A stretch of 64,000 nt of DNA from a virus. Location of the stretch: the IMG/VR virus record IMGVR_UViG_3300027921_000016, positions 1 to 64,000 of that record. The stretch is one strand, 5' to 3'. The position numbers and the translations under genes are program-made. Below are positions 2,944-29,799 of the stretch, one piece after another; position 1 is the first letter of the stretch; each line of letters opens with the position of its first letter. The notes below the pieces were generated by a model that searched no databases, was not told the DNA's origin, and saw nothing but the letters and a program-made list of their open reading frames with translations.

Positions 2944-3549
2944 TTACTCCTGGGATGCAATTGGTTGCAGAAGCTCAGGGTCTTGACAGTTGACCATCCC
3001 AGTAGCATCAGGTCTGTGTTTACCGGTGTTCCAGTACCGGTAGTACGTACTACGGTACAGCCGCTTGAGCGTGCCCGTCCCGGTCTTGGTCTTGCCCAGG
3101 ACCTTTGGCGCCCGAATTTCCCGCACGTACAACCTGGAACCATTCTCGATGAACACCAGTATTCCTGCCCATTCCGGTACATGCTCGGGTATCTTGTACT
3201 TGGGTTCAAAGGTTCTACCTAGGTCTTTCCACCACCCCCAGCCTTCGGCCTTGTGCTCTTGCTTCTCCAGTAGGTGCTCGGGTACCGCGTAGTAGAATCG
3301 GCTCACGAACTTCCAATTCAGGCTAGTCCACTTGCCCTTCTTGGCGTCGATCTTCCAGTCCCCGTGTGTGAGCTTGACCTCGACCTCCCACATGTAATTT
3401 GCGGGGGTCACCAGTACGAAATCGGCCTCCCAGTCATACACATGGACGTTCGGGAAGCACTGATTCTGAGCGTAGTTGAAGAACGTACCGAGCGCAGCAA
3501 CACACTTACCCTCAGAATACCTCTTGGTACTCTCGATCTTCAGCATCAC
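2944..3549 (-). CDS. PD-(D/E)XK nuclease, MmcB-like
   Basis: EADF...EVEVK...DW..D..K and RFYYAVP motifs. Confidence 0.7.
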   Translation of the reverse strand: MMLKIESTKRYSEGKCVAALGTFFNYAQNQCFPNVHVYDWEADFVLVTPANYMWEVEVKLTHGDWKIDAKKGKWTSLNWKFVSRFYYAVPEHLLEKQEHKAEGWGWWKDLGRTFEPKYKIPEHVPEWAGILVFIENGSRLYVREIRAPKVLGKTKTGTGTLKRLYRSTYYRYWNTGKHRPDATGMVNCQDPELLQPIASQE

Positions 3550-4181
3550 TTTACCTCTCGAATCACCTCAAACGCCTCAGCGTACTCAGACCCAGCCTCA
3601 GCCCCGTACACCCTAGAATTAGCATAGATTGACATCGGAGACCGTGGACCTTTTTTCATAAACTCCCAGGTGTACGCCCGGTACGCCCTCACCTTTACTT
3701 CCATACCCTCTTCAGAAGCGGGCCAAAAACTTGCAGGCTTGAACTCCCCGTACAGCCCACCAAAATTAGACCCCAGAGATACAAACTCCAACAGCGTGCA
3801 AGTGGTCTTAGTTGATCTTGTGGCTACCCTCACGGCCTCACACACTATGCGGTGATCCCTATTCAAGTCCTTTCCTGAGTGCGTGATCACCAGGCTGGGA
3901 ATGCACTCCGAGACCGCGTTTTCTACCTGCCATACCAAATCGGTGAACGGTATCCCGTCCAGACCCTGATCTGGATAACCCAGATATAGCAGGCGCTGGT
4001 ACCCAAGGACCCCCTGAGCGGCCTCCGCATGCACCCTACACACCCCTGGCTGCCCATGACGAATACTGTTCTCACAGAACATGAGTACCGTCACCTCATG
4101 CTCCTTGGCCAACCGGTGAATGGTGGCCCCCACTCCTAGTACCTCGTCATCCGGGTGTGCAACAACCACAAGTACATTCAT
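3546..4181 (-). CDS. PIG-L/LmbE family N-deacetylase
   Basis: VVAHPDDE; THS..DLNRDH; YAEAF C-terminus. Confidence 0.9.
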   Translation of the reverse strand: MNVLVVVAHPDDEVLGVGATIHRLAKEHEVTVLMFCENSIRHGQPGVCRVHAEAAQGVLGYQRLLYLGYPDQGLDGIPFTDLVWQVENAVSECIPSLVITHSGKDLNRDHRIVCEAVRVATRSTKTTCTLLEFVSLGSNFGGLYGEFKPASFWPASEEGMEVKVRAYRAYTWEFMKKGPRSPMSIYANSRVYGAEAGSEYAEAFEVIREVK

Positions 4182-5296
4182 CTTGCCTCCGGGGTCTTGT
4201 AGCAGTCATCCAGCAGCGCGTCTACATTATAGACATATCTCTGCAACCAGAGATCATCAACGATACCACATACAGGGCTGTACCCTACCGCCCCCTGTAG
4301 CACTTGACGAATGCCTCCGATGTCCCCAGCAGAACACAAGGCCTCCAGTGAGTTGACGGCAGACAGTACAGTCTTCCACGCAGGTATCGGTTCGTTCGCC
4401 ACCATTATCTCCGGGTGGGCAGTAGACCTCAAGCCATCCCCCAGGGTAAGTTCCTCATGTAGTTTCTCTCCGGGGCGAAGGCCAACAAACACTACTTCAG
4501 AATCCCTCCCCAGGTCCTCGATCATCCTGGTGGCGATGTCCACTATCTTTACAGCCTCCCCCATGCTAAGCACGTACACCCCACAAGGCATTACATGTGC
4601 TTGTAGGATCAACACAACCGCCTGAGAGACAGTCATGAAGTACCGATCCACCTGAGCGTGTGTGACCGTTACCGGTAGACCCGCCTCTATCTGCTCATAG
4701 AATAATGGGATTACCGAGCCGCTACTGCCTAGCACATTACCGAACCGTACCACCCTAACCCTGCCCTTCAACTTCAGATTACCCAAGGCCAGTTGTTCTA
4801 CCAAGGCTTTACTTGCCCCCATCAAGTTAGTCGGTCTGACGGCCTTATCGGTACTGATCACCGTGATAGCCTCCACCACAGGGGACGCGGCACACACGTC
4901 CAGCAAGTTCGAGGCAGCAAACACGTTGTTGCGTATGGCCGATACAGGGTTACGCTCCACCATCGGCACGTGCTTGTACGCCCCCACATGAAACACTTGG
5001 GACACCCCGTACACGTCTACCAACGAGGACACCAAGGAAGTGTCTCCGTAGCTGCCAAGCACCGGCACTGCAATTGATTGCAGCTTGCGATGCACCTCAT
5101 ACAGACGGTACTCATTATTGTCCAACAACACCAACTTCTTCACGCCGACACTGCCAAGCCGTGCACACAGGGCAGAACCAATTGAACCCCCAGCGCCCGT
5201 CACAAGCACGGACTTACCCCGCAACCCAGACACGTCAATAACCTCCTCGGTCGGGGTTTTACCCAGGAACTCCATCAACTTCTGTTCATTGAACAT
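4178..5296 (-). CDS. Nucleotide-sugar 4,6-dehydratase, PglF/CapD/WbpM type, soluble catalytic domain only
   Basis: TGAGGSIG, AYKHVP, STDKAV, MGASK (MxxxK), RFGNVLGSSGSV, GLRPGEKLHEEL. Confidence 0.92.
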   Translation of the reverse strand: MFNEQKLMEFLGKTPTEEVIDVSGLRGKSVLVTGAGGSIGSALCARLGSVGVKKLVLLDNNEYRLYEVHRKLQSIAVPVLGSYGDTSLVSSLVDVYGVSQVFHVGAYKHVPMVERNPVSAIRNNVFAASNLLDVCAASPVVEAITVISTDKAVRPTNLMGASKALVEQLALGNLKLKGRVRVVRFGNVLGSSGSVIPLFYEQIEAGLPVTVTHAQVDRYFMTVSQAVVLILQAHVMPCGVYVLSMGEAVKIVDIATRMIEDLGRDSEVVFVGLRPGEKLHEELTLGDGLRSTAHPEIMVANEPIPAWKTVLSAVNSLEALCSAGDIGGIRQVLQGAVGYSPVCGIVDDLWLQRYVYNVDALLDDCYKTPEAR

Positions 5297-6399
5297 GCCA
5301 CGGCCTCCAGTATGGTCTCCACTTGCGCGTTCGATAACTGGGAGTACAAGGGTAGGGAACACGCGGACTGCCAGTACTGCTCAGAAACAGGGTACTTCTT
5401 GACATCATCACTGTATGCCGACAACCGGTGCAGGGGTTTGAAGTGCACGGACATCCCAACCCCCTGGGAGGTCATACTGGCTATGAAACCCCCCCTATCA
5501 ACCGTAGGCGGCAACTGAATCGGGTACAGGTGGCGACAGTGGCCAGCATGGTAATACGGCCTGAGTATCTCCTCAGGTAAGAGCTCATCGTACCTCCGTG
5601 CGATCTCCATACGACGGATACGCATTTCTTCCTCACGAAGAAGCTGCACCCTACCCATTGCCGCTGCGGTGTCGGGCATATTAGCCTTCCACCCCACCTG
5701 CGTGACATCGTACTCCCACGCTCCACCAGAGTCCCGGTACCGGTTGAAGGCATCCCGGCTGATCCCATGCAACCTGCCTCTCTGTACATGCTGAATCAAC
5801 CCTGGATTGCCTGACACAACCATACCCCCCTCCCCCGTGGTTATGCACTTGGTTGCGTAGAAGCTGAACACCGTTGCCAGGGAATCATCAGAGGCCCCGA
5901 TTCTACACAGAGCATCTTCCGCACCAAACGAGTGGGCGGCGTCCTCTATGAGCGGGATACGCTCACTCAAGCAGTACTTGACAATCTCGGTGCGATCAAT
6001 CGGCACGGCCCCAGCAAAATGGACCAGAACCACAGCCCCTAAAGGCTCCTGCTTGTGGGCCTTCGTTACAGCATGCAAGGACAAACACAGATCATCTGCA
6101 CGGACATCCCCTATTACAGGGCGGCCCCCTGCCTGCACGATGGTCTCGATACTGGCCACGAACGTGATGTCCGGTACCAGTACTGGCTTTCCTTGTAGCT
6201 GTAAGTACTCCAGGGCCAGTAACAGCCCTGCTGTGGCACTATTTGCTGCCAAGCAGGTACGTGAGGTGTTCAGCCACTCCTGCGCCTCCTGTTCAAACAA
6301 CCGCATCTGAGGCCCGGAGGTAATCCACCCGCCCTCCATGGCCTTGGCCACGGCCTCTATCTCTCTATTCGTTATATCCGGTACCGCGAACGGGATCAT
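5275..6399 (-). CDS. DegT/DnrJ/EryC1/StrS PLP-dependent sugar aminotransferase
   Basis: IEDAAH, FSFYATKCITTGEGG, SLPLY. Confidence 0.95.
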   Translation of the reverse strand: MIPFAVPDITNREIEAVAKAMEGGWITSGPQMRLFEQEAQEWLNTSRTCLAANSATAGLLLALEYLQLQGKPVLVPDITFVASIETIVQAGGRPVIGDVRADDLCLSLHAVTKAHKQEPLGAVVLVHFAGAVPIDRTEIVKYCLSERIPLIEDAAHSFGAEDALCRIGASDDSLATVFSFYATKCITTGEGGMVVSGNPGLIQHVQRGRLHGISRDAFNRYRDSGGAWEYDVTQVGWKANMPDTAAAMGRVQLLREEEMRIRRMEIARRYDELLPEEILRPYYHAGHCRHLYPIQLPPTVDRGGFIASMTSQGVGMSVHFKPLHRLSAYSDDVKKYPVSEQYWQSACSLPLYSQLSNAQVETILEAVACSMNRS

Positions 6400-6971
6400 T
6401 TTGACACCTCGTACATCACCCAGGAACTAAAGAACGGCACATTACGATATTCCCCACAGGCAGTGGTGGACCGGACAGTGAATCCAGCGCCTTTTAGCAA
6501 CCTACGAAACCCCCTGTCCGACCAGATATGGAGCAGGGTAGGATCATCCTTGTACCCTTTCACTTCATTCCAAGGCTTACGCGCCAACCAACTCAGCCTG
6601 CGGGGAATGACGAAGAACGCCTTGCCACTTGGGGTCAGGCGACTATGTAACCCCGTAAGGGTAGCCTCTGGGTTGAGTACATGCCCTAGCACATTCACAC
6701 ACAGAATGACATCAAACTGCAACTGAGGTACTCGGGTAGCCCATACAACTTTGGGGCATTCCCGCATACCGTACTGCCTCAGCTCCGTACTGGGTTCAAA
6801 AGCGGTAACATGGTTGCAGGCCGACAGTGGGCACGCCAATCCCCCTACGCCAGCCCCAAAATCGAGTATCAACTTGGGTATGTGGGTAGAGAGACGCCCT
6901 ACCAACCACTGACGTAGCCATAGGTAGTGCAGGGTGCGGTTATATTGGATAAGCCTCTGGCTGTAGCTCAT
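6396..6971 (-). CDS. Class I SAM-dependent methyltransferase
   Basis: ILDFGAGVG motif I; FDVILC.NVLGHV; L.P.G. Confidence 0.85.
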   Translation of the reverse strand: MSYSQRLIQYNRTLHYLWLRQWLVGRLSTHIPKLILDFGAGVGGLACPLSACNHVTAFEPSTELRQYGMRECPKVVWATRVPQLQFDVILCVNVLGHVLNPEATLTGLHSRLTPSGKAFFVIPRRLSWLARKPWNEVKGYKDDPTLLHIWSDRGFRRLLKGAGFTVRSTTACGEYRNVPFFSSWVMYEVSK

Positions 6972-8461
6972 TTCACTCTCCTCATGTGCCCGGCCTTCAC
7001 ACTGGCGTCCTCCCACCCATGGAAAGCCATCAGGGCCATACGAAACTCGTTCCACGGGGTGGCCCACACAATACCTTTCGAGTCCCGAGTGTCTTCCAAC
7101 TTGGAAGACAGGCCCCTGAACACCCCCTGTTCAGCCAGCTCCCCTAGCACATCGTGCAAAACCATTTCAGAGCGGGACTCCGTGGCCTTGCACACGGCCT
7201 GAACCACATCGTTATCTGCCTTTCCTGGGAACTCCTGAATGTACTGCGGGAGCGTCTTGGTCTTGAATTCCTGTAGACGGGCATAGAACAGCTCGTACAT
7301 CGTATGCTCGTACTGCCCTCCATGATCAAACATGGCCTTGAATGCCCCTTGCTGCCAATCCAGGAACCTTGCATACATCCCTGGGTAATCATCGTGGAAC
7401 ATCTTGATCATAGCGTAGGCTTCCGTCTCGTTGTGGACAAAGAACGGATAGTCCTCTCCAAACAAGGACTCAAGCCATGTAGCCCTTTTCATTACCGATG
7501 GCACTCCCAAGAGCAAGGGCTCCACCTGGGACATGCCAAACCCACCTTCGGTAGTCATGGTTATCACCAAGTCCATCTCCTCCCTCAGTAGCCTCCAGAA
7601 CTCCTCTCGCGGAGGGTGCAGCACCTGACAGAACTCCGGAGGGGCCATCTTGATGCCCGTAGACACGGTAGAGAACACCACCTTGAATCCAAGGTCCCCT
7701 TTCAGTATCCAGTGCTTCTCCATCACCGAGTAGATGGTCTCCAGGTTAGTAGTACTCAGGCCCATACGCTCGGTGAACCCCAAACAGAATGGCCGCTGCC
7801 CTCTCACAAATCGCCTATCTTCGGCTTTACTGTGGAACCCAAAGGCCTTCACATCAACGGGTGTGTACAGCCTGATCTTGTCCCGTAACTCCTTCACGAT
7901 AGCAGGGGACATGAACCTCTTGGCGGCCTCCATCACCCCGGTCTTCTCATGCTTGATGGTAATCAACACATCATCGGCTGCCACGTACCCACACAAGGTG
8001 GCCAGGTCCTGCACCCGTCTGTCCGATACCGCTACGGTCTTCTTGAAGGACATTACTGGCATCTCCTCCCAGAGAAGCACCTTCTTCAAGAACGCCTGAT
8101 TGTAATTCCGGGGGCTGGTCATCACCAGTTTCATATTCTGAATCTGCTGGGTACGCATGGTAATCACCACGTCCGTATCCCAATACGGGCCGTTGAATGC
8201 CAACAAGGTCTCCAACTCCTTGGGGAACACCTGGTACTCCCGCATCCGGTCGTGGCTATACGGGTACTTCAGATACTCGATGTTCGGGTGCTCGGGGAAC
8301 CATTCGTACTCTTCCGCCTCCATCTCCCAGTCCGGGATCAGCCACCGGAAGAACACATCGTCCGTCTGGGATAGCACGTACTCAACAAGCCTCCGGGCCT
8401 TGAGTGCGGAAGCACAGTGGCTCGGCTTGGTACTGTAGATGGGGTCTATGACTACTTTCAT
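6968..8461 (-). CDS. Divergent GT-B fold glycosyltransferase (putative)
   Basis: DLVITMTTEGGFGMSQVEPLLLGVP resembles the GT4 EGFG..xEA..GxP donor-binding motif; sits in a sugar operon. Confidence 0.6.
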   Translation of the reverse strand: MKVVIDPIYSTKPSHCASALKARRLVEYVLSQTDDVFFRWLIPDWEMEAEEYEWFPEHPNIEYLKYPYSHDRMREYQVFPKELETLLAFNGPYWDTDVVITMRTQQIQNMKLVMTSPRNYNQAFLKKVLLWEEMPVMSFKKTVAVSDRRVQDLATLCGYVAADDVLITIKHEKTGVMEAAKRFMSPAIVKELRDKIRLYTPVDVKAFGFHSKAEDRRFVRGQRPFCLGFTERMGLSTTNLETIYSVMEKHWILKGDLGFKVVFSTVSTGIKMAPPEFCQVLHPPREEFWRLLREEMDLVITMTTEGGFGMSQVEPLLLGVPSVMKRATWLESLFGEDYPFFVHNETEAYAMIKMFHDDYPGMYARFLDWQQGAFKAMFDHGGQYEHTMYELFYARLQEFKTKTLPQYIQEFPGKADNDVVQAVCKATESRSEMVLHDVLGELAEQGVFRGLSSKLEDTRDSKGIVWATPWNEFRMALMAFHGWEDASVKAGHMRRVK

Positions 8462-8500
8462 GGGTACTCCTTAACTACGATTGACGGTATCGGTCTTACT

Positions 8501-9151
8501 TCAAACAAGACCCCAGGTAGCGCACTGCTTGACTATCACCAACGGGTCTGACTCCTGTGCAATCAATTGCAGAACAGAGTTGCCTCCACACCCATTGTGG
8601 ACGGTCTGAAACTTCACGGGATATCCAAACAGCCCCACATCCATGTAGTTTCTGCCTCCGGCCCCACTGTAGTACACACAGGCCCCTAACCGTGCTGAGG
8701 ATATAGCACAACGTAGCCTGCTAGTAGTATCCTCTCCAACGTACTCCTCCACTGGGCGCACATCCAAAGACAAACCCAGACCCTCTCCGACCTTCAAAAT
8801 CAACTCCATGTTCATAGGCGAGAGACGTGAAAACTCCATGGTCTCGTACTTCAGGAGCACATCCCTGACGGGCTCCAGCCGCGCACGGTACTTATTGGCC
8901 TTGCTCATCAACTCCTGCTCTATGGTCTTACGGGCCTTTGTGATCGAAGGCCCCCGCACAACAGCATCTAAGTAGGTCTTCCCATGGACATCTAAGCTGA
9001 TCCATCTACCCTTTATCCGGACACGGTAGTGCATACCCCCGCTCTCCAGAGCCACCATATCCAACGGTAAGTACACGTCGGTACTAGCCAACTTATTCCA
9101 GAACCCTGCCCAGGGAAGGAAATCAGGCTGGTGCACTGCTACTCGTAGCAT
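8501..9151 (-). CDS. WbqC-like protein
   Basis: HQPDFLPWAGFWNKL N-terminus; YYSGAGGRNYMD. Confidence 0.85.
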   Translation of the reverse strand: MLRVAVHQPDFLPWAGFWNKLASTDVYLPLDMVALESGGMHYRVRIKGRWISLDVHGKTYLDAVVRGPSITKARKTIEQELMSKANKYRARLEPVRDVLLKYETMEFSRLSPMNMELILKVGEGLGLSLDVRPVEEYVGEDTTSRLRCAISSARLGACVYYSGAGGRNYMDVGLFGYPVKFQTVHNGCGGNSVLQLIAQESDPLVIVKQCATWGLV

Positions 9152-9434
9152 TTGGTTCTCCTTGTTGAGCCTTCAGAGCCTTGTCGTTGAATGCCGCTAC
9201 AACCTCTGGGGGGATTTCTCCAAGATCAACATCGTTGGATACCCACACCTCTCTACGCATGGTCAGACCATACACCACCCCTGCTAGGGCGTCCGACACA
9301 TCCTTACTGTTATGTACGAACGGACCTAGTGCTACCTTAAAGTTTTCTGGGCCTCGCACCGTCACGTCGTACACCGGAACAGGGGCGTCTACTCTTACTT
9401 TACGTACTGATTTTATCCGCATTTTCGGCCTCAT
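9123..9434 (-). CDS. Split-intein C-half (9309-9434) fused to the terminase large subunit C-extein
   Basis: IKSV...PVYDVTV...NF...GPFVHN|S (blocks F/G); extein SKDVSDALAG carries the nuclease DxxD. Confidence 0.92.
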   Translation of the reverse strand: MRPKMRIKSVRKVRVDAPVPVYDVTVRGPENFKVALGPFVHNSKDVSDALAGVVYGLTMRREVWVSNDVDLGEIPPEVVAAFNDKALKAQQGEPNATSSSAPA

Positions 9435-10077
9435 TCTTAGCGACTATTGCCTGCCCCTCGGTTTCAAACCAACCAATATGCCGTTTCTTGTACACAACAC
9501 GCCACCTTGCTTTTCGTTTTTGATTCTTTGCAAACGAAACGCCTACTACAGTACTTGTTCTTTCTCCCACGTTTCTTGGCGGGAGGGCCTCAACACTGCC
9601 CGGTAGGTCTTCTTTCTTGAAGTTCAATATCGCAAACTCTCCCCGCTGTGCAATCGCAGCCAAATCACGGGCTTGTGCTGCCTTCAGTACTGAATCGTAG
9701 TACCCTACCGTTTGCTTACCCAATCGAGCGGCAAACACATTTGGGCTTTCTTGCCTCACACCCCGGTATCCGCAGGCTCCAACACTCTTATCAGAGTTCC
9801 AGGTATTCTGTTTATGCGTTGCCAGGCGTAGATTCTGCCTTCGGTTATCCAACCTCACTCTATTTACATGGTCTACCTGATATTCTGGGTCTCCCATAAT
9901 CAAGCGGTGCATCTGGATGTTTATCGTTCTGTTCTTATCGGTCTTACTACTGCCCTTTCGGTGGACTGCCGTTGCTGCGTACCCATTACGTAAATACCAT
10001 TTATACGGTGCAATCAATTGCAGGTCTTCTTCATCAACCTGCACTTTATGTCCTCCGTGTATCGTTATCGTAGCCAT
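9400..10077 (-). CDS. Free-standing HNH homing endonuclease with AP2-like domains
   Basis: MHRLIM..VDHVNRVRLDNRRQNLRLATHKQN; YRGV; AAQARDLAA; GGGAGAG SD before MATITI. Confidence 0.9.
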   Translation of the reverse strand: MATITIHGGHKVQVDEEDLQLIAPYKWYLRNGYAATAVHRKGSSKTDKNRTINIQMHRLIMGDPEYQVDHVNRVRLDNRRQNLRLATHKQNTWNSDKSVGACGYRGVRQESPNVFAARLGKQTVGYYDSVLKAAQARDLAAIAQRGEFAILNFKKEDLPGSVEALPPRNVGERTSTVVGVSFAKNQKRKARWRVVYKKRHIGWFETEGQAIVAKNEAENADKIST

Positions 10078-10121
10078 TGTCTCTCCCAAAAACAATAGTC
10101 TATCCTTGTTTTGGAGGCTGG

Positions 10122-12182
10122 TCAATCCTGAACTTCGTCTCCCTCCTGTAAGTACTGAGCTTGTATGTACTTTCCGGTCTTCAACAATACCGGGTGTTCT
10201 GGCGTACACACAAGCACACCCCCGCCCCATATTTCGATCTCCACTAGGTCTTGCACGTATTTGGTTATCCTCGGGTGCTCCATAGGCAAATGCACATACT
10301 GTCGGGTATCGTTACTCCAAGACACCCCGGTATGCACTACACCCTGTTCGTAGTCTCGTACAAGTTGGGCCATGGTACGAATTTTATGGTCTGCACATTC
10401 GATCTTTGTACTCCCCAACAAGCAACCGTGGGGAGAGTGATCTATCTTCCTCTTCTTCACATCCTTCTCTAGCGAGACCAACTCCAAGGCGCACTTCCTA
10501 TGCGTAGGCATGTTGATCCGCCCATCATACAGGGCGTTCTTCACAAAATCATAAGGGTGGGTGGTGATGTCCACACTCTGCAACCCCACTACAAACCCTT
10601 GCTGACGCAGTATCTGCTGACTATCTGTAGACTGGAACTGGTCGAAGGTCACCCATTTTATGTTCATGCCCAGACCACGAAGAGCTGCTATGACCTCGCG
10701 CACCTTATACAACAGAATCTCTCCCCCTTTTGGAGGCTTTATCTCCAGCAGGGCGTCTATCCAGATGTTAGGCATTAGCCACCCATCCTTAGACTGCACA
10801 AACTTGTCCACCGTGCCAACTGCGAAACCAGCACTGTCTCCGCTCACGGCCAGGTCACAGTGCACGAATCGTGGAAGCTCAGGACGGTAAAACTTATTCT
10901 TGTAAATCTGGAGCTTGAACTCCTGGAAGTCCACCATTTCCCGTCCAAAAATAATGTCCGTAGTCCTCTGTGCATCCCTAACACTATCGCGGTTCATGAT
11001 GAACGGGTGGTGTGCCAGGGTGCTCACCCCAGCCACATCCCGTAGTGCCTTCATGATATCCGCCTCGAAGTTCACCCGGTATTCCTCTGGTATAGCCATC
11101 ACCAAGTCGCACTCGCTGTCCGCCACTACCTCCGTAGTCTCCAGTATGCGTGGGGTTCTAGCGTCGTCCCCAATGAAGATGTTGAACCACTTGCCACTAA
11201 AGCGATCAAGGGGCTTGACCTCCCACTCCCGCTTGTCATACACGTAAATGCCGGTGCTACCTGTACGAGCGACCTCCTTACGTGCCTCCTCTTCTTTCTT
11301 GTCAGTGAACTGCCCAGGGTACCTCTTGGAAGACACCAGGCAGAGCAGTCCGGGCAGTATCCCTTTCTTCATGAACCGAGACTTACGGCGCATGGCTATA
11401 GAGTCATACAGAGCAGTGGCTTGGTCATAGGTACTGTTGTCCATGTTCGCCTTACTGTTCTCTACAACTGCCATGAAGTTCATTTCGTCTATCAGACCCC
11501 CAATCACGTTCTGCCCTATCGCCCCAGTCTCCGCCCCTGAGACGGGCTTCACGATGATCCGATTAGGGAACTTCAACTCACTCACAATGTCCTTATCGAA
11601 AGGAAACTTCTCCCTGAAGTACGCACTCCTTTCGATCATTGCCCGGAACCGGTCGAAATCCACTGACTTAGCCAGTTTGGCGTTCAAACTCTGAAAGATG
11701 AACGTAATCTCGGAGCTGGGATCAAGGTCAAACAGGTAGTGAGGCGTGCGATAGCAACTCAGCTTGTACAATTGGTAAGCCGTACTGTACAGAGCAAGGG
11801 TGGACTTCCCGGTACCAATTGCACCCGTGAGCACGGCCTCCTGATACAGGCCGTTATTCATCTCTATCAGGCACTCCATCACCTTTGGGAACAGGATGTT
11901 CTTACTGTCCATGAAGTACGGGTCCTCCACGAACGTCTGGATGCTTACAGGGTCGTACTTCAAGCTACTGAAGCCCCGTACTGCCGACCCTCTTACTAGG
12001 CCCTCGCCTTTACGCACTTTCTCCAAATCGGTTACCACAGCCTTGAGGAACCGTACCTGCAAGCTAGGGTCAGGGAGCTTCATGCCCTCCTCCAGTACTC
12101 TAGCCCCTCTATCAGGACCGAGCGCCTGTATCAGGTAGTTTCTGGCGTGCTCAATCACCTGTTGCATCTTGCACGCTCTCAA
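10122..12182 (-). CDS. terL: Terminase large subunit N-part ending in a 100-aa split-intein N-half (10125-10424)
   Basis: Walker A GAIGTGKS, Walker B LIDEMNF, nuclease HCDLA and TFDQFQS; KIDHSPHG|CLLGST..., block B CTPEHP, L..GD then stop. Confidence 0.92.
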   Translation of the reverse strand: MRACKMQQVIEHARNYLIQALGPDRGARVLEEGMKLPDPSLQVRFLKAVVTDLEKVRKGEGLVRGSAVRGFSSLKYDPVSIQTFVEDPYFMDSKNILFPKVMECLIEMNNGLYQEAVLTGAIGTGKSTLALYSTAYQLYKLSCYRTPHYLFDLDPSSEITFIFQSLNAKLAKSVDFDRFRAMIERSAYFREKFPFDKDIVSELKFPNRIIVKPVSGAETGAIGQNVIGGLIDEMNFMAVVENSKANMDNSTYDQATALYDSIAMRRKSRFMKKGILPGLLCLVSSKRYPGQFTDKKEEEARKEVARTGSTGIYVYDKREWEVKPLDRFSGKWFNIFIGDDARTPRILETTEVVADSECDLVMAIPEEYRVNFEADIMKALRDVAGVSTLAHHPFIMNRDSVRDAQRTTDIIFGREMVDFQEFKLQIYKNKFYRPELPRFVHCDLAVSGDSAGFAVGTVDKFVQSKDGWLMPNIWIDALLEIKPPKGGEILLYKVREVIAALRGLGMNIKWVTFDQFQSTDSQQILRQQGFVVGLQSVDITTHPYDFVKNALYDGRINMPTHRKCALELVSLEKDVKKRKIDHSPHGCLLGSTKIECADHKIRTMAQLVRDYEQGVVHTGVSWSNDTRQYVHLPMEHPRITKYVQDLVEIEIWGGGVLVCTPEHPVLLKTGKYIQAQYLQEGDEVQD

Positions 12183-12795
12183 ACACCCCGTCTATGGCGC
12201 TGAAAAATGTCGCTGCTGCTTTCTCCAGTTGCTCATTTACTTGGTAACTCACTTGTACAGCGTCCTTACCATCGGACTCGACTACCGTGGTCTTGCCATC
12301 CTGAATAATCTTGGTGGTCTTCGGTACCCTGCGTACAAACCCTAGATCGAACGACAGGTCAGCAAACTGTTGGATTAACCCCGAGAGGGTCTTCATCTCC
12401 CCCCCGAGGGACGAAATCAGAACAGGCATATCCTTTTCACGGATCATCAACTTCTGCACTCGGGCCTTCTGTGATAGGACCAGTTGCCCCACCTCCTCCA
12501 GTACGTCGATCTCCTCCTTGGTGTGCTGGAGCGGAATTATCTCCTGCCCTTTCGGAATCACCATGGCCATGTTCTTGTCCACTACATCGTACTTGTAGCG
12601 GTACAGGTACTTCTCCAGGGTGTTTTCCTTTACATCCGTCCACAGGCCGAGAGTCTGCTGAAACATCTTCATGATCGCCGGAACACCCCGACCTTCATAG
12701 AACATGGTGTGCAGTATGGCTTTCTGTTCCGGCGTAAGCTCCTGTATGCGCTTAAACGCACGACCGGGGTCTTTACGTGGCTCCTGTGACGGCAT
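12151..12795 (-). CDS. Putative terminase small subunit
   Basis: Helical protein immediately upstream of and overlapping TerL. Confidence 0.55.
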   Translation of the reverse strand: MPSQEPRKDPGRAFKRIQELTPEQKAILHTMFYEGRGVPAIMKMFQQTLGLWTDVKENTLEKYLYRYKYDVVDKNMAMVIPKGQEIIPLQHTKEEIDVLEEVGQLVLSQKARVQKLMIREKDMPVLISSLGGEMKTLSGLIQQFADLSFDLGFVRRVPKTTKIIQDGKTTVVESDGKDAVQVSYQVNEQLEKAAATFFSAIDGVFESVQDATGD

Positions 12796-12941
12796 CTTAA
12801 CCCCAAAACACAAACAGCCTGGGGGCTAAGACCGTCAGGCTTACAAGTACAACCAAACAAAGAACTGGCCCTACTGAGTGTCTACCGTGACTCTTGGGGC
12901 CAATCCGTTTAAGGGACCCCGCACACAGGACAACTAAGGTA

Positions 12942-12970
12942 ATCATACCCCCACCCCCTCAGACTGTCAA
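12942..12970 (-). promoter_or_regulatory. Canonical sigma70 promoter upstream of the terS-terL-sugar operon
   Basis: TTGACA-N17-TATGAT. Confidence 0.65.
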
Positions 12971-13819
12971 TTGCTGTTCTACGGGTAACTTACCTATGGG
13001 AGTTACTACTGGAGGTAGGGGTTTGAGGTACTCCTCCAGAGCGGAGGTACTCAAGTTGCCGGTTGCAATCAATTGCAGTAGCGAGCCCAACACCTGATCC
13101 ACAGACCTCTGCTTACTCTTGCACCAGTCACACAGTACGAGAAACTGCATTTTTTCCTTCTTGGACATGCGAATCCAGACGTGCTCCTGTCCACCGAAGT
13201 CAAACACCATGTACCCCCAGGGTAGGGTGTCTCCGTACTCGGAGAACAGCTTGTTCAGCACCAGAGCGAGGCCGTCAATGGTCTTGATCTCCTTTGTTGC
13301 TTCCTCGAAGGCGGGCAACATCTCCGGTGGTAGGGACTTACCTGTAGCCTTCACCATCTTACGGAACTCTTCCTCACTGGTGAAACCGAATAGTTCAGAA
13401 GCTACCTCTTCCGTGTACTTCTCAGACAGCGACTGGTACATGGCCATGAACTTACTGGCCGACATTTTGCCTCGGATCAGGTTATGACGGACATTCTGGA
13501 ACTTCTCCTTGTCGTCGTCGAACTCAAGATCGGTGATGATCGTTACCGGTACCTGCTCCAGACCCATGAGCTTAGCTACCTCCCAGCGATGGTGGCCACC
13601 AACAATACGATAGGAACCGTCTTTAAGCGGTCGTACAAGCACCGGATCGGTGATCCCAATGGAGCCGATGTTATCGTACAGCATATTGAATTCCTGGTCC
13701 GACATCTCATTTGGGTTGAGCGGGTTCGGTACCAGGGAATTTACTGAGAGAAACGTGCGGGACAACGATGCGGTACGTTCTTCCGCTGTAGGGGCTACCA
13801 TCTGCAACTCCTTATGCAA
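12959..13819 (-). CDS. ParB/Srx N-terminal domain protein with possible HTH
   Basis: LVPNPLNPN...GITDPVLVR...YRIVGGHHRWEVA...VPV; YTEEVASELFGFTSEEE is HTH-like. Confidence 0.85.
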   Translation of the reverse strand: MHKELQMVAPTAEERTASLSRTFLSVNSLVPNPLNPNEMSDQEFNMLYDNIGSIGITDPVLVRPLKDGSYRIVGGHHRWEVAKLMGLEQVPVTIITDLEFDDDKEKFQNVRHNLIRGKMSASKFMAMYQSLSEKYTEEVASELFGFTSEEEFRKMVKATGKSLPPEMLPAFEEATKEIKTIDGLALVLNKLFSEYGDTLPWGYMVFDFGGQEHVWIRMSKKEKMQFLVLCDWCKSKQRSVDQVLGSLLQLIATGNLSTSALEEYLKPLPPVVTPIGKLPVEQQLTV

Positions 13820-13827
13820 TTGATCTC

Positions 13828-15054
13828 TTACGGTGTACAGATTGTACCACCTACAGAGCTCGTGTGGGGGGTCTCCTGTACGGGGTAGTGTGTGGGTATG
13901 CCTTCCACTATACGGAGCCTGGCGGCTCTTAGATCATGCTGAAATACGGGGGATAGCAGGGTTTCCCTGACTGCCTGGGCGTGCTCTTCGTTCAAACCAA
14001 CCGAAGTTGCCTCCATCTGGTCATTGAACCCCTGTATGGTACTTGTCAGAGCCCAGTGTACAGGCTTGTCCAACACCGCTGACTCTGTTTGGAATAGCAT
14101 CATGGATATCATGGCTTGCCTGTCTCCTTGGTACCCAATTTTTTCCAGACATTCTTTGAGGGATTTGCTACTTTTCAATACATAAGCAATGGCTCTCTTA
14201 CCATCTGATACATACTGATCGAACGCCCACTCAGGCACGCCCCCAACCATCTGCAACCCCCTCTCGGGTACCACCAGAGGCGCGTCCACCCTCCAATCCA
14301 TAAACCCAGACTGACACCCCGTAAGGCCTATCAACGGGGATGTCAGGTAGCTTACGTCTTTTTTCGTCCCCGCGTATAGAAGGTAAGCTGCCAGCGGTGA
14401 AGCCCCGGCGTCTACCAGTACGTTCATGTACGCGGTCAGGGCCATTAACCTCTCCTCCTTGGTAAGGGATGAACTTTGCCCATCCAAAGCGTAGCCCAGA
14501 CCGTAGGACACAGTGCTCGCGGATAACGCAAGACGCTCTTCCTCCTTCTGATCATTAAACTGATACCCTAGGCCATGACCAACCATCCAGGAGCATGTTA
14601 CGTCCGTCAAGGTGCGACTCTTCCAAGAGTGACTCAACTCCCTGGCTATCCATGAAGCTACCTGGACAGACCCTCCCAATGCGGTCCTATAGCTCTTGTG
14701 CCTGCACAAGGCCATCACCTGTGCACACAGCTTGAGGTTGACGATCCCGATATCTTCCAGAGCTATGATGGGAAGGCGCCTCCACAGGTAGTCCTCCTTG
14801 CCTCCATGTACGATTGCTTGGGCATATCGTACAGCCAAATCTTGATACCCTCGACGTATGCTCTTCTGCAAGGCAGAGGACACTTTCCACAGCTTACTAG
14901 GATCAGACAAACTGACACTGATCTCCGGGAAGGTGGGAGTAAACTCCACCCCTGCAAGTAACCGGCTCTCCATTTTTTTACCCGAATCCAACAACAAGTC
15001 AGACACCGAAACCCCTTGGAACTCCTTAGGGCAAAACATCGTCGCGTAGTGCAT
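13828..15054 (-). CDS. MgsA/RarA C-terminal-like domain protein lacking the ATPase
   Basis: SALQKSIRRG and LWRRLPIIALEDIG; no Walker A. Confidence 0.65.
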   Translation of the reverse strand: MHYATMFCPKEFQGVSVSDLLLDSGKKMESRLLAGVEFTPTFPEISVSLSDPSKLWKVSSALQKSIRRGYQDLAVRYAQAIVHGGKEDYLWRRLPIIALEDIGIVNLKLCAQVMALCRHKSYRTALGGSVQVASWIARELSHSWKSRTLTDVTCSWMVGHGLGYQFNDQKEEERLALSASTVSYGLGYALDGQSSSLTKEERLMALTAYMNVLVDAGASPLAAYLLYAGTKKDVSYLTSPLIGLTGCQSGFMDWRVDAPLVVPERGLQMVGGVPEWAFDQYVSDGKRAIAYVLKSSKSLKECLEKIGYQGDRQAMISMMLFQTESAVLDKPVHWALTSTIQGFNDQMEATSVGLNEEHAQAVRETLLSPVFQHDLRAARLRIVEGIPTHYPVQETPHTSSVGGTICTP

Positions 15055-15177
15055 TTTCAGCCTTTTTTTTATTGGGGTATGGGGTAACGGTGCCACAGTG
15101 CATAGGAAAAGCAATAGGTGGCCTTACGGTAAAACTTTAGGCCCTCCGCCCGCCGATTAAGCTGACGTTATGCGTCA

Positions 15178-17116: not shown

Positions 17117-17722
17117 TCATCTACCCTCCTGGGGAAAGAACTCCCGTATGTCATTCCACTCTACACCCTCGATGGCCCTCACATACATGTAGGTCAAGGC
17201 ACTGAAATCCAAGGCCGGTACATCCTGTACAGTAGAGAGATCGCACAAACTCGGGTCGTCGCTGATGTTGAAGTACAACCGACATGATAACGGTCGTATC
17301 TGGTATATCGAGCACTTACCGTCCTCCAGAAAAGGACAGGGTACCCGCATGTACTTCGTAACCACCAGGCTACGGTCCAACTCCATCCTGGCAAACACCA
17401 TCTTCCTGCCCGTACTCTGGGCGATACGCTTGGCCTCCTCGGTATGGATGGTAACCGCCTGATGGCAACAGTGACTACACCCCTTCCGGCATGCCGTATG
17501 AGGCAAGACCGCCCGCTGCACACGCTCTGCGAGCACAAAGAACTTGGTGACCCTCTGCTTGTTCGTGCCCTCAGGCTCTTCACGAAATGGCCTGGAATTG
17601 AGCAAGGCGTCCAGTATAGGCTCGACAGCCGCAACATTGTCTTCTACTTGTTGATGCACAGTGCGCAGCACAGCTACCTCCAGAAAGGGGTGTACAAACG
17701 GGCTTCTCGTTTGGTTATCCAA
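17117..17722 (-). CDS. YkgJ-family cysteine cluster protein
   Basis: CRKGCSHCC...CPFL...CSIYQIRPLSCRLY. Confidence 0.85.
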   Translation of the reverse strand: MDNQTRSPFVHPFLEVAVLRTVHQQVEDNVAAVEPILDALLNSRPFREEPEGTNKQRVTKFFVLAERVQRAVLPHTACRKGCSHCCHQAVTIHTEEAKRIAQSTGRKMVFARMELDRSLVVTKYMRVPCPFLEDGKCSIYQIRPLSCRLYFNISDDPSLCDLSTVQDVPALDFSALTYMYVRAIEGVEWNDIREFFPQEGR

Positions 17723-20254: not shown

Positions 20255-20752
20255 TTAAAACAGCCGATGTACCCCATTGAGACCTGAGGTACCTCCTGTA
20301 GTCGCTACCTGTAGCCCTAGCCTAGCTAGAGCGTAGGCATCAACTATGTCATCCGATGAGCTAGTATACCCCCACCGGTCCTTTACTACTTCTGCCATAC
20401 GCACCTTATCAGCAGTACCCTTACCTGTCACCCATTTTTTCAAAGTAGTGGGCGGGCACTCCCAGGTGGGGATACGGGTAGCGTATAGCGTATGGCGTAT
20501 TATACTACCTATCTCAACTAGAGTCACAAGAGAATGCCTGTTGCCATAAGCATAGCCTTCGATCATGATGAGATCAGGGGCGGCCAAGACCCCCGTCCGC
20601 AACACCTCATCTGCAATTGATTGCAGGCGACGATAGCCTGTCTGCCCGTTAAACGCTATGGTTTTGCCTATAGCCGATACCTCCAACTGCCCCTCGACTA
20701 CCAGCTTCACCACCCCCGTACAGGTGGAAGGGTCCAGGCCAAGTATTTTCAT
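20255..20752 (-). CDS. ruvC: RuvC-like Holliday junction resolvase
   Basis: ILGLDPS, IEGY, KKWVTGKG.ADK, DIVDAYALA. Confidence 0.85.
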   Translation of the reverse strand: MKILGLDPSTCTGVVKLVVEGQLEVSAIGKTIAFNGQTGYRRLQSIADEVLRTGVLAAPDLIMIEGYAYGNRHSLVTLVEIGSIIRHTLYATRIPTWECPPTTLKKWVTGKGTADKVRMAEVVKDRWGYTSSSDDIVDAYALARLGLQVATTGGTSGLNGVHRLF

Positions 20753-21603
20753 ACGGCCATAGGGGCACTGATTGCAGGGTGTGATTGATAGCCCTCCAAC
20801 TGTATGTCTTCCGGCAACAGGCGCAGCAGGTACTCCATTGGCGTCCGCTCAGGGGCCTTCTCCGGTATCACCAACGTCGGTAACGGGAACGGCGCCCTAC
20901 TACACTGCGCATCCGCCTGCTCCATGTGGTTGGCGTACACATGGACATCCGATAGCATCATCACCAGTTTGCCTGGAAGGCGCCCAGTGGCCTTGGCCAC
21001 CAAATGCAGGAGCAGCGCGTAACTGGCGATATTAAAAGGGATGCCCAGGAACATGTCACAGGACCGCTGGAACATAACGAGGTCCAGGGTGTTGTACTCG
21101 ATATCCACTAGGTACTGGTGCAGTACATGGCAAGGCGGCAAGGCCATCTGATCCAGTTCGGCGGGGTTCCAGGCGTTCACGATGATCCTGCGGCTACTCG
21201 GGTTGGACACGATGTCATCCAGGGCGTTCTGCAACTGGTCCACCCTCTGCCCTATTGCCCCTCTCCATTGCCGCCATTGCATGCCGTATATGCGGCCAAG
21301 GTCGTCTTCCCCCCTGCGGAAGCGACTTGCAAGCCACTGCCTGTTCTCATTGGCATTCTGATCCCAGATTCTGCAACCCAGGTAGCGAAACTCGGAGGCC
21401 CTGGAGTACCCCCGGATGAATCCCAGGAGCTCCGCCTTCACAGCCCCGAAGGCCAACTTCTTGGTGGTAACCGCAGGAAAGCCGTCAACCATACTGAACT
21501 CCAGCATGGCCCCAGCCTTACGGTAAGTGGGGATACCCGTCCGGTTCAGTTGTTTCCTGCCGGTTGTAGCGACATCTGCCAACAAATCCAAATACTTTTT
21601 CAT
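20749..21603 (-). CDS. thyA: Thymidylate synthase
   Basis: LPPCH, QRSCDMFLGIPFNIASY, DVHVYANH, C-terminal PMAV. Confidence 0.97.
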   Translation of the reverse strand: MKKYLDLLADVATTGRKQLNRTGIPTYRKAGAMLEFSMVDGFPAVTTKKLAFGAVKAELLGFIRGYSRASEFRYLGCRIWDQNANENRQWLASRFRRGEDDLGRIYGMQWRQWRGAIGQRVDQLQNALDDIVSNPSSRRIIVNAWNPAELDQMALPPCHVLHQYLVDIEYNTLDLVMFQRSCDMFLGIPFNIASYALLLHLVAKATGRLPGKLVMMLSDVHVYANHMEQADAQCSRAPFPLPTLVIPEKAPERTPMEYLLRLLPEDIQLEGYQSHPAISAPMAV

Positions 21604-29340: not shown

Positions 29341-29799
29341 TCAATCCTGTACGTGAAGGGGCAGGTAGTACCCCCCTTCTACGCCTGCTTCTTTCAGTAT
29401 GTGCTTGGCGTACTCAGCCTCTTCTGCCCACACGGTACTCGCCCCTATACGATGGTTGGCTGGGGCAAACACCCTTTTAATGCCTGACTGAGCGATCATA
29501 CCCGCGCAGTTAGAGCACGGATGCAGGGAAGTGATGATCATCTGACTGCCAAGTAGCCGCGCGCCAACACGAGCTGCCTGGGCAATGGCATTGGCTTCTG
29601 CATGAACCACGAACTTGTATTTCGTAGGCTTGTGTTCCCATCGTACCGGGCTGTCGGTCACCCCTCTGGGAAATCCGTTGCAGCCGACGGACAGAATGTT
29701 GCAGTCCATGTCCAGGACTACCGCCCCTACCTGGGTACTCGGGTCCTTACTGAGGGTCGCCATGGCCTGGGCTACAGCAATAAATTTCAAGGGGTTCAT
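29341..29799 (-). CDS. dCMP deaminase
   Basis: SKDPSTQVGA, HAEANAI, PCSNC. Confidence 0.93.
   Translation of the reverse strand: MNPLKFIAVAQAMATLSKDPSTQVGAVVLDMDCNILSVGCNGFPRGVTDSPVRWEHKPTKYKFVVHAEANAIAQAARVGARLLGSQMIITSLHPCSNCAGMIAQSGIKRVFAPANHRIGASTVWAEEAEYAKHILKEAGVEGGYYLPLHVQD

Follow-up and report, generated by a model that had tools for sequence, protein, structure and literature searches.

Glycosylation of phage DNA, as described so far, starts from a prepared base: either 5-hydroxymethylcytosine (5hmC) or 5-hydroxymethyluracil (5hmU), made through a ThyA homologue or a 5mYOX dioxygenase, or 5-hydroxycytosine (5hoC), made by a ThyA carrying D169N (PMC13326640; PMC13229309; bioRxiv 10.1101/2023.12.21.572611). 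The commonest gene neighbours of the phage DNA 5mYOX dioxygenases are glycosyltransferases (GTs; 31%), ParBs (27%) and terminases (19%), and one 5mYOX subclass is activated by a ParB homologue (PMC13229309). Here we analyze an amino-sugar gene cassette that follows the large terminase gene in a 64-kb window (IMG/VR record IMGVR_UViG_3300027921_000016, positions 1 to 64,000), which is the first part of a complete phage genome of 97,848 bp with direct terminal repeats. Like the 5mYOX clusters (O'Toole et al. 2026, PMC13229309; Pyle et al. 2023, bioRxiv 10.1101/2023.12.21.572611), the locus brings together a GT (497 amino acids, hereafter GT497), a ParB, an AAA/MgsA-like protein, sugar-tailoring enzymes and a terminase; the GT is likewise a GT-B enzyme with BshA and MshA as solved neighbours, and its action would be post-replicative and probably site-limited. 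Unlike in those clusters, we found no 5mYOX or other 2-oxoglutarate (2OG) oxygenase, or any other base-hydroxylating enzyme, in the genome, the transferase has a winged-helix tail of its own, and the donor would be a tailored 4-amino-dideoxy-hexosamine in place of the hexose, N-acetylhexosamine (HexNAc) or heptose that the 5mYOX clusters draw from the host pool.

Our favoured reading, to which we give a probability of about 40%, is a sparse, post-replicative decoration that would place a de-N-acetylated 4-amino-4,6-dideoxyhexosamine on the phage DNA or on a packaging complex bound to it. We favour it because the genes form a mobile module, the transferase has a conserved acceptor lobe and a winged-helix tail, and GT-ParB-terminase neighbourhoods have been published. 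In this scheme, host UDP-HexNAc would be converted to UDP-4-amino-4,6-dideoxy-HexNAc by a PglF-type 4,6-dehydratase together with a DegT aminotransferase, the sugar would be tailored by an S-adenosylmethionine (SAM) methyltransferase and a WbqC-family protein, and GT497 would move the tailored sugar to its acceptor. By analogy with BshA/BshB, MshA/MshB, PIG-A/PIG-L and LmbT/LmbE, the PIG-L protein would strip the N-acetyl group after the transfer, so that the product sugar would carry one or two free or methylated amines and would be cationic. The acceptor, which is the least certain step, would be either the DNA of the phage itself or a packaging complex of ParB/TerS bound to DNA, modified at limited sites after replication and not at each copy of one base, with a possible role in packaging, charge balance, marking, or evasion of a defence other than ordinary type II restriction. 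The genes concerned, in the order of their transcription, are the following.

13828-15114, minus strand: 428-aa protein with an MgsA_C-like lid segment at residues ~73-133 (Pfam PF12002, E 3e-4, under the cut-off)
12959-13819, minus strand: ParB/Srx-domain protein with a GGHHRW box (phrog_26387, E 3e-86; TIGR00180, E 2e-11, under the cut-off)
12942-12970, minus strand: sigma-70-like promoter match, TTGACA-17-TATGAT (11 of 12 positions; a consensus match only)
12151-12813, minus strand: TerS-position protein of 220 aa, between ParB and TerL (no family match)
9123-12182, minus strand: large terminase (TerL), intein-split with a free-standing HNH gene (tblastn; HNH_3 Pfam match), in the parts TerL-N (10122-12182), HNH (9400-10230), and IntC plus TerL-C (9123-9434)
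8501-9151, minus strand: WbqC-family protein, first gene of the cassette (PF08889, E 1.3e-16, 61.6 bits against a cut-off of 21.3)
6968-8461, minus strand: GT497, with a GT-B (GT4-like) fold, a linker helix and a C-terminal winged helix
6396-7067, minus strand: class I SAM methyltransferase, likely start ATG 6971 (PF13489, E 1.7e-19)
5275-6399, minus strand: DegT/PseC/ArnB-type sugar 4-aminotransferase dependent on pyridoxal phosphate (PLP) (PF01041, E 1.9e-79)
4178-5362, minus strand: open reading frame of the PglF/WbpM/CapD-type UDP-HexNAc 4,6-dehydratase, likely start ATG 5296 or 5275 (PF02719, E 7.7e-89, 298 bits)
3546-4181, minus strand: PIG-L/LmbE-family de-N-acetylase (PF02585, E 5.7e-18, 66.1 bits against a cut-off of 28.2)
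2944-3546, minus strand: p201, 200 aa, last gene of the operon, coupled to PIG-L (phrog_2776, unknown function, E 6e-22)

An earlier note on this DNA had read the six genes from WbqC to PIG-L as a terminase-coupled pathway that delivers an amino sugar to DNA or virion proteins, an interpretation that as a whole is partly supported by our analysis. All six genes are where it placed them, on the minus strand like nearly all genes of the phage; five were recognized by Pfam and the 497-aa frame by its fold model. Their coupling to each other and to terL is likewise borne out once the best start codons are used, each of which carries a GGAGG- or AAGGAG-type ribosome-binding site. The TerL-C segment, which corresponds to the C-terminal end of the TerL of relatives, overlaps WbqC by 29 nt; 4-nt stop/start overlaps join GT497 to the methyltransferase (at ATG 6971), the methyltransferase to DegT, and the dehydratase to PIG-L; the dehydratase start overlaps the DegT stop by 22 nt (start 5296) or 1 nt (start 5275); and PIG-L overlaps p201 by 1-4 nt. 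The sugar cassette thus comprises seven translationally coupled genes, from WbqC to p201, after the terS-terL late operon. Because promoter-like sites occur only at 12970-12942, ahead of terS, and at 2935-2908, after p201, and because of these overlaps, we regard the cassette as a 3′ extension of the packaging operon. The layout fits the late, terminase-coupled expression that had been proposed, and the ParB gene indeed precedes the TerS-position gene.

The genes for making the sugar are well defined. The dehydratase belongs to the PglF/WbpM/CapD group by its Pfam match and by its motifs: GAGGSIGS (the Rossmann GxxGxxG), STDK, and LMGASK, the last confirming the predicted MxxxK, in which Met replaces the Tyr of YxxxK. 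DegT has its PLP lysine in SFYATK. The best NCBIfam matches are PseB and FnlA for the dehydratase and PseC and ArnB for DegT; these stay below the curated cut-offs (PseB 160 against 407.75 bits, PseC 262 against 423.5), which places the pair outside the PseB/PseC equivalogs. Given the family matches and intact motifs, we judge the proposed route from a PglF-type dehydratase and a DegT enzyme to a 4-amino-4,6-dideoxy-HexNAc to be sound chemistry, although the stereochemistry at C4 and C5 cannot be told from sequence. These are the first steps of the PglF/PglE (bacillosamine) and PseB/PseC (pseudaminic acid) pathways; unlike those pathways, the locus has no PglD-type acetyltransferase, NeuB or NeuA, and a membrane domain is probably missing too. 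The methyltransferase carries the motif I ILDFGAGVG, and PIG-L is a PIG-L/LmbE member with an intact metal-binding motif AHPDDE and with VVVAHPDDEVLG; a full-text literature search found no papers on PIG-L together with terminase.

WbqC-family proteins are common in Uroviricota, at times fused to a GNAT domain, and the Atlas neighbours of this one are all WbqC. Its profile retrieved nothing meaningful among the sequences of the Protein Data Bank (PDB), so that no solved relative was found for comparison, and a literature search returned nothing useful; the glycyl-transferase role that had been suggested for WbqC is not supported. The last gene product, p201, had no Pfam or NCBIfam match and only chance-level PDB matches. 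It matches phrog_5429 ("DNA repair protein") weakly (E 2e-8) and contains a D...EVEVK pattern, a possible PD-(D/E)xK nuclease-like motif.

By sequence, GT497 does not group with GT4: no Pfam or NCBIfam profile matched it at E ≤ 0.01, its own profile does not merge with the bulk of GT4, and it matches phrog_30253 ("glycosyltransferase") weakly. The GT-B-like fold on which the earlier interpretation depended was nevertheless recovered in an AF2 model built from 43 homologues (pLDDT 92), in which residues 1 to ~380-400 form the GT-B part. Foldseek matched it to BshA, PglA and MshA at E ~1e-9, and VIA-align gave Z scores of 22.4 to SenB, 21.7 to BshA, 21.0 to PglA and 19.8 to MshA, with superpositions on the solved GT4 enzymes (SenB, BshA, PglA) extending over ~300-345 residues at a root mean square deviation of 3.5-4.5. 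The phage HY126 DNA arabinosyltransferase (PDB 9ir0) followed at Z 17.6. T4 AGT and BGT (GT72/GT63) were not among the 50 Foldseek/VIA-align matches listed, which excludes nothing, as they too have the general GT-B fold. BshA, MshA and PglA/PglH-type enzymes have also been reported as the nearest solved neighbours of validated phage DNA GT-B enzymes (bioRxiv 10.1101/2023.12.21.572611). The GT497 family retains E314-P-x-x-F-G-x-P and has no clear second Glu of the EX7E motif. A search of 1.84 billion representatives recovered 645 clusters at E ≤ 1e-3, and the 150 best-listed clusters are nearly all 480-500 aa long and matched over their full length, which makes this a small, uniform family; structural look-alikes of the full-length protein are present in Arthrobacter phages.

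The same structural neighbours leave room for a different target, namely a small-molecule amino-glycoside made by the logic of bacillithiol, mycothiol, lincosamides or aminoglycosides, or a host envelope glycan. SenB, BshA, MshA, LmbT and a tetrahydrobiopterin glucosyltransferase, the nearest solved structures, all use small acceptors, the best NCBIfam matches of PIG-L, albeit weak, are BshB1 and BshB2, and the set of a GT4 enzyme, a deacetylase, an aminotransferase and a methyltransferase resembles aminoglycoside clusters. As in the GT4 plus LmbE/PIG-L pairs BshA/BshB, MshA/MshB, PIG-A/PIG-L and LmbT/LmbE, a HexNAc would be transferred and then de-N-acetylated, and the best structural matches include BshA, MshA and LmbT. 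Yet the acceptors of those pairs are small molecules or a lipid, whereas the transferase described here has an extra winged helix, which would be unexpected in a small-molecule enzyme, and sits in a packaging operon; its family scores are far under the equivalog cut-offs. The operon contains no flippase, polymerase or membrane GT, as had been noted, and polyprenyl-phosphate GT and exporter are not present either. The module is common to phages of diderm and monoderm hosts, an actinobacterial phage included, and it is always placed at packaging genes, which also disfavours the conversion of host O-antigen. We therefore consider a small-molecule or envelope target improbable.

When the last ~85 residues of GT497 were folded alone, all 50 top matches were winged-helix domains (Z 5-6), among them histone H1, forkhead, MarR/PadR/Fur, Z-alpha, cullin WHB and ESCRT-II; the domain spans residues ~413-497, i.e., positions 6971-7225. 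Across the 43 aligned homologues, the acceptor-side N lobe contains 20 near-invariant columns, the same number as the donor lobe, and the conservation of this lobe despite varying sugar genes fits one common acceptor. A complex prediction of GT497 with ParB scored 0.01, which counts neither for nor against their association.

The acceptor could also be a protein, and this is the main rival of DNA as the target: late glycosylation of a protein of the virion or of the packaging machinery (capsid, tail, portal, ParB or TerS), in which the variable sugar genes would reflect selection on the virion surface. Mycobacteriophages reportedly glycosylate capsid and tail-tube proteins. The position of the cassette in a late operon with the terminase suits such a role, as do the lack of any base-preparing enzyme among our findings, the exposure of the phage DNA to restriction (see below), and a charge-neutral winged helix whose matches include the protein-binding cullin WHB and ESCRT-II. 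A sugar pathway that varies among relatives while the transferase is kept would be expected as well, and a short-chain dehydrogenase/reductase (SDR) of the homologous cassette in Stenotrophomonas phage DLP3 was detected in ghost-particle preparations (PMC7326821, Table 4). On the other hand, no homology could be detected between the structural proteins of this phage and those of Arthrobacter phage DanielleIgnace, and still the acceptor lobe equals the donor lobe in conservation. The DLP3 major capsid protein was 92% covered by unmodified peptides (PMC7326821, Table 4), which argues weakly against heavy capsid glycosylation, and a protein target does not explain why ParB and the TerS-like protein accompany the transferase, except if either of them is itself the acceptor. 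Taken together, we hold a protein acceptor to be possible, if rather unlikely.

The comparison with other phages shows that a set of these genes moves as a unit. The relatives by TerL are siphophages of 87-101 kb (TerL identity 45-54%, tblastn), namely Stenotrophomonas phages DLP3, DLP5 and Summit, Rhodobacter phage RcZahn, Rhizobium phage RHph_TM16 and Vibrio phage KarBoss; megablast of the region against phage records gave no match. The transferase lies directly upstream of ParB-TerS-TerL, with ParB as its usual immediate downstream neighbour, both in the relatives from GenBank and in the first eight loci from IMG/VR. GT497 was found at most one gene from ParB in 12 of the first 13 loci, and it is present in 22 of the 25 ParB loci of the close clade. 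The sugar genes that go with it differ among the relatives, in which a WcaG-type SDR takes the place of the PglF-type dehydratase, and WbqC, PIG-L and the methyltransferase are present or missing from one relative to the next. With the otherwise unrelated DanielleIgnace, this phage has in common only PIG-L, WbqC, GT497, ParB (40% identity) and the TerS-position protein, whereas its terminase, portal, capsid and replication genes found no match there. Since only these five proteins are common to both, we conclude that the set moves as a module. Every transferase homologue that we found sits beside phage packaging genes, including three of three in bacterial genome records, which adjoin a phage TerL.

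The cassette lies downstream of terL in this phage, in a contig of an Acidobacteriaceae metagenome-assembled genome (L022) and in one IMG/VR locus (L063), and in this phage and L022 the gene order relative to transcription is inverted compared with the relatives. L022 (374 kb) repeats the layout of the window at 3087-15057, with ParB, TerS, TerL, WbqC, the GT (54% identity), methyltransferase, DegT, dehydratase and PIG-L; p201 is missing from this otherwise identical cassette. The contig gives a clue to which hosts the subclade may infect, and it may represent a prophage or a phage contig caught in the binning.

Several observations weigh against the decoration of DNA or of a DNA-bound complex. 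First, no enzyme that would prepare a base was found. Six-frame searches of the complete genome detected no TET/JBP, 2OG-FeII_Oxy_2 or _3, ThyX or TGT, and PF12851, PF13640 and PF13532 gave nothing at E ≤ 1, although very divergent oxygenases could escape such searches. TET/JBP (PF12851) was found in none of the five cultured relatives either, a further difference from the 5mYOX clusters. The earlier note had reported no hydroxymethylase or TET gene in the window; this stands, and extending the search to the rest of the genome, as it had proposed, revealed no base-hydroxylating enzyme, but a ThyA homologue had been overlooked. Two genes of nucleotide metabolism bear on the point.

20749-21603, minus strand: ThyA (PF00303, E 4e-92)
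29341-29799, minus strand: dCMP deaminase (PF00383, E 1e-20)

The active-site stretch of ThyA, MALPPCH ... FQRSCDMFLGIPFNIAS, corresponds to L143, C146, D169 and N177 of the E. coli enzyme; as all four residues are canonical, ThyA is by its sequence an ordinary dTMP synthase. Together with the dCMP deaminase, it indicates that the phage has its own ordinary dTMP supply and not a hydroxymethylase route. The locus thus resembles the 5hoC/5hmC systems of Straboviridae and Pootjesviridae (Lee et al. 2026, PMC13326640) in pairing phage-encoded nucleotide-sugar synthesis with a GT-B enzyme comparable to that of HY126, and it differs from them in that they need a ThyA homologue with D169N (for 5hoC) or a dCMP hydroxymethylase. 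The winged helix adds a second difficulty for DNA as the acceptor, as it is not basic (net charge -1; family median 0) and its match Z of 5-6 is modest. Third, a sister clade and 3 of 25 close relatives have ParB-TerL pairs without GT497, from which it follows that ParB has a role of its own; the adjacency of GT497 and ParB may in part be inherited synteny. The transferase is accordingly an accessory of the phage clade and not an essential packaging component. Last, the published evidence for modified DNA in a carrier of the homologous cassette is thinner than it appeared. DLP3 DNA was reported to resist 15 restriction enzymes, which was read as modification (PMC7326821), but 10 of these 15 enzymes have no site in the DLP3 genome (MT110073.1), and sites exist only for SmaI (68), ClaI (18), EcoRI (7), NdeI (4) and XbaI (1). 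The published inference thus depends on five enzymes, and its control for cutting went unreported. All five were reported not to cut (PMC7326821), which leaves room for some modification, but the DLP3 resistance loses most of its weight as support for modified DNA, since missing sites largely explain it. Within the same DLP3 cassette lies the "Erm" methyltransferase (gp99), for which a sugar-tailoring role is worth considering beside the reported erythromycin phenotype.

If DNA is the acceptor, GT497 might attach the amino sugar directly, without prior hydroxylation of a base, at sites set by ParB and the TerS-like protein, after which PIG-L would unmask the amine. We regard this as doubtful. 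The sugar could be linked to an exocyclic amine, to a phosphate or hydroxyl of the backbone or of a terminus, or to the DNA ends that terminase produces, and the sites might possibly be the genome-wide lattice of the 14-bp TGCAATCAATTGCA. Copies of this 14-mer occur within WbqC (8558), the dehydratase (5069), the HNH gene (10009) and ParB (13064), and one with a single mismatch lies near the end of p201 (2956). The copy in WbqC encodes LQLIA, a motif also found in the WbqC homologues of other phages.

The composition of the genome bears on whether such a sugar would cover the DNA. Among 6-bp palindromes, 48% occur at an observed/expected ratio (O/E) below 0.5 and 27% at O/E < 0.1, against only 0.3% of the non-palindromic hexamers at O/E < 0.5. 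The share of sites at O/E < 0.1 was 40% in DLP3 and 64% in RcZahn, whereas T4 and PhiW-14, which served as controls with genome-wide modified DNA, showed 0% and 4%, respectively. Purging is at least as strong in carriers of the transferase as in relatives that lack it (median 31% versus 20% and 12%). The purge is extreme and bimodal, with palindromes either near zero or at expectation: CCCGGG, CTGCAG, CGTACG, CTCGAG, GTCGAC and AGATCT have zero copies in this genome, while GGTACC has 54 and TGGCCA 79. Purged palindromes span all base compositions (e.g., AATATT, AGATCT, CCCGGG and CTGCAG). The purged sets differ among this phage, DLP3 and RcZahn (GTAC, for example, has 768 copies here versus 1 in RcZahn), from which we conclude that purging is recent and host-specific. 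CAATTG, in turn, is overrepresented (61 versus 41 expected) because of the 14-mer.

These data show DNA that is evidently exposed to type II enzymes, and a blanket protective sugar is therefore unlikely. An anti-restriction purpose, as had been proposed, is not supported, as every carrier examined purges palindromes, and no less than non-carriers do. We accordingly consider it very improbable that the cassette places a cationic sugar on all or most copies of one base as a genome-wide hypermodification against restriction. Such a function could draw on the DLP3 resistance data, on the GT-B fold that GT497 has in common with the T4 and HY126 DNA glycosyltransferases, and on the terminase next to the cassette. 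It is opposed by the missing DLP3 sites, by the strength of the purge in this phage, DLP3 and RcZahn and its undiminished level in carriers, and by the recent, host-specific purging across all base compositions; moreover, no dCTPase- or hydroxymethylase-type machinery for replacing the nucleotide pool was found, and ThyA is canonical. In the Straboviridae and Pootjesviridae systems, protection covers the whole genome, and T4, unlike this phage, has no purge of palindromes. Alpha-putrescinylthymine of Delftia phage PhiW-14, made by a 5-hydroxymethyldeoxyuridine kinase and pyrophosphorylase route, is a cationic DNA modification that aids dense packaging. The sparse decoration that we favour would similarly fix positive charges on packaged DNA, although the purge in PhiW-14 is weak.

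The TerS-position protein has weak homology to gp1 of DanielleIgnace and to the genes at the same position in relatives. We considered this 220-aa protein as a hidden dioxygenase and rejected it: no His-x-Asp-type family signal was found, its N-terminus is helix-turn-helix-like, and it holds the TerS position in all relatives. For the 428-aa protein upstream of ParB, PDB matches are restricted to the MgsA/RarA C-terminal segment, and no AAA core was detected, though the relatives' annotation reads "AAA-ATPase". Its homologues head the sugar cassette in relatives; RcZahn, KarBoss and many IMG/VR loci have them next to PIG-L or the transferase. Its Atlas neighbours include Nucleocytoviricota clusters. 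A 201-aa protein at 17117-17722 on the minus strand has a CxxCxxCC putative zinc/iron-chelating domain (PF03692, E 1e-9). Beyond the window, at 86538-91840 of the genome, a PPDK-like dikinase (PPDK_N and the PEP-utilisers mobile domain, no pyruvate-binding barrel) occurs with two DSP/PTP (CX5R) phosphatases that flank a 338-aa protein of unknown function; this set follows TerL in most transferase-carrying relatives. By its resemblance to glucan-water dikinase and the laforin/SEX4 glycan phosphatases, it might act on the same glycan.

GT-ParB-terminase neighbourhoods are known for 5mYOX pathways, but a version that has no 5mYOX and instead combines a separate transferase family with a donor of the amino-sugar type has not been characterised. 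New in the present analysis are the palindrome and restriction-site analysis, the five-protein module in common with an actinophage, the winged-helix domain, the ThyA check, and a tally of how many ParB loci have the transferase and how many lack it. The family comprises ~650 clusters, and the hosts of its cultured members are Stenotrophomonas, Rhodobacter, Rhizobium, Vibrio and Arthrobacter; whichever acceptor is used, the existence of cultured carriers makes the question directly testable. For this clade, "resistant to restriction enzymes" is largely explained by missing sites, which matters for the description of therapeutic Stenotrophomonas phages. If the sugar is on protein, glycosylation of virion or packaging proteins would extend from mycobacteriophages to phages of Gram-negative hosts. 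If it is on DNA, the cassette would represent a glycosylation route independent of both TET/JBP dioxygenases and thymidylate-synthase variants, and it would add a cationic diamino sugar in place of a neutral hexose; direct attachment, if true, would amount to a new DNA glycosylation chemistry and a new use of ParB.

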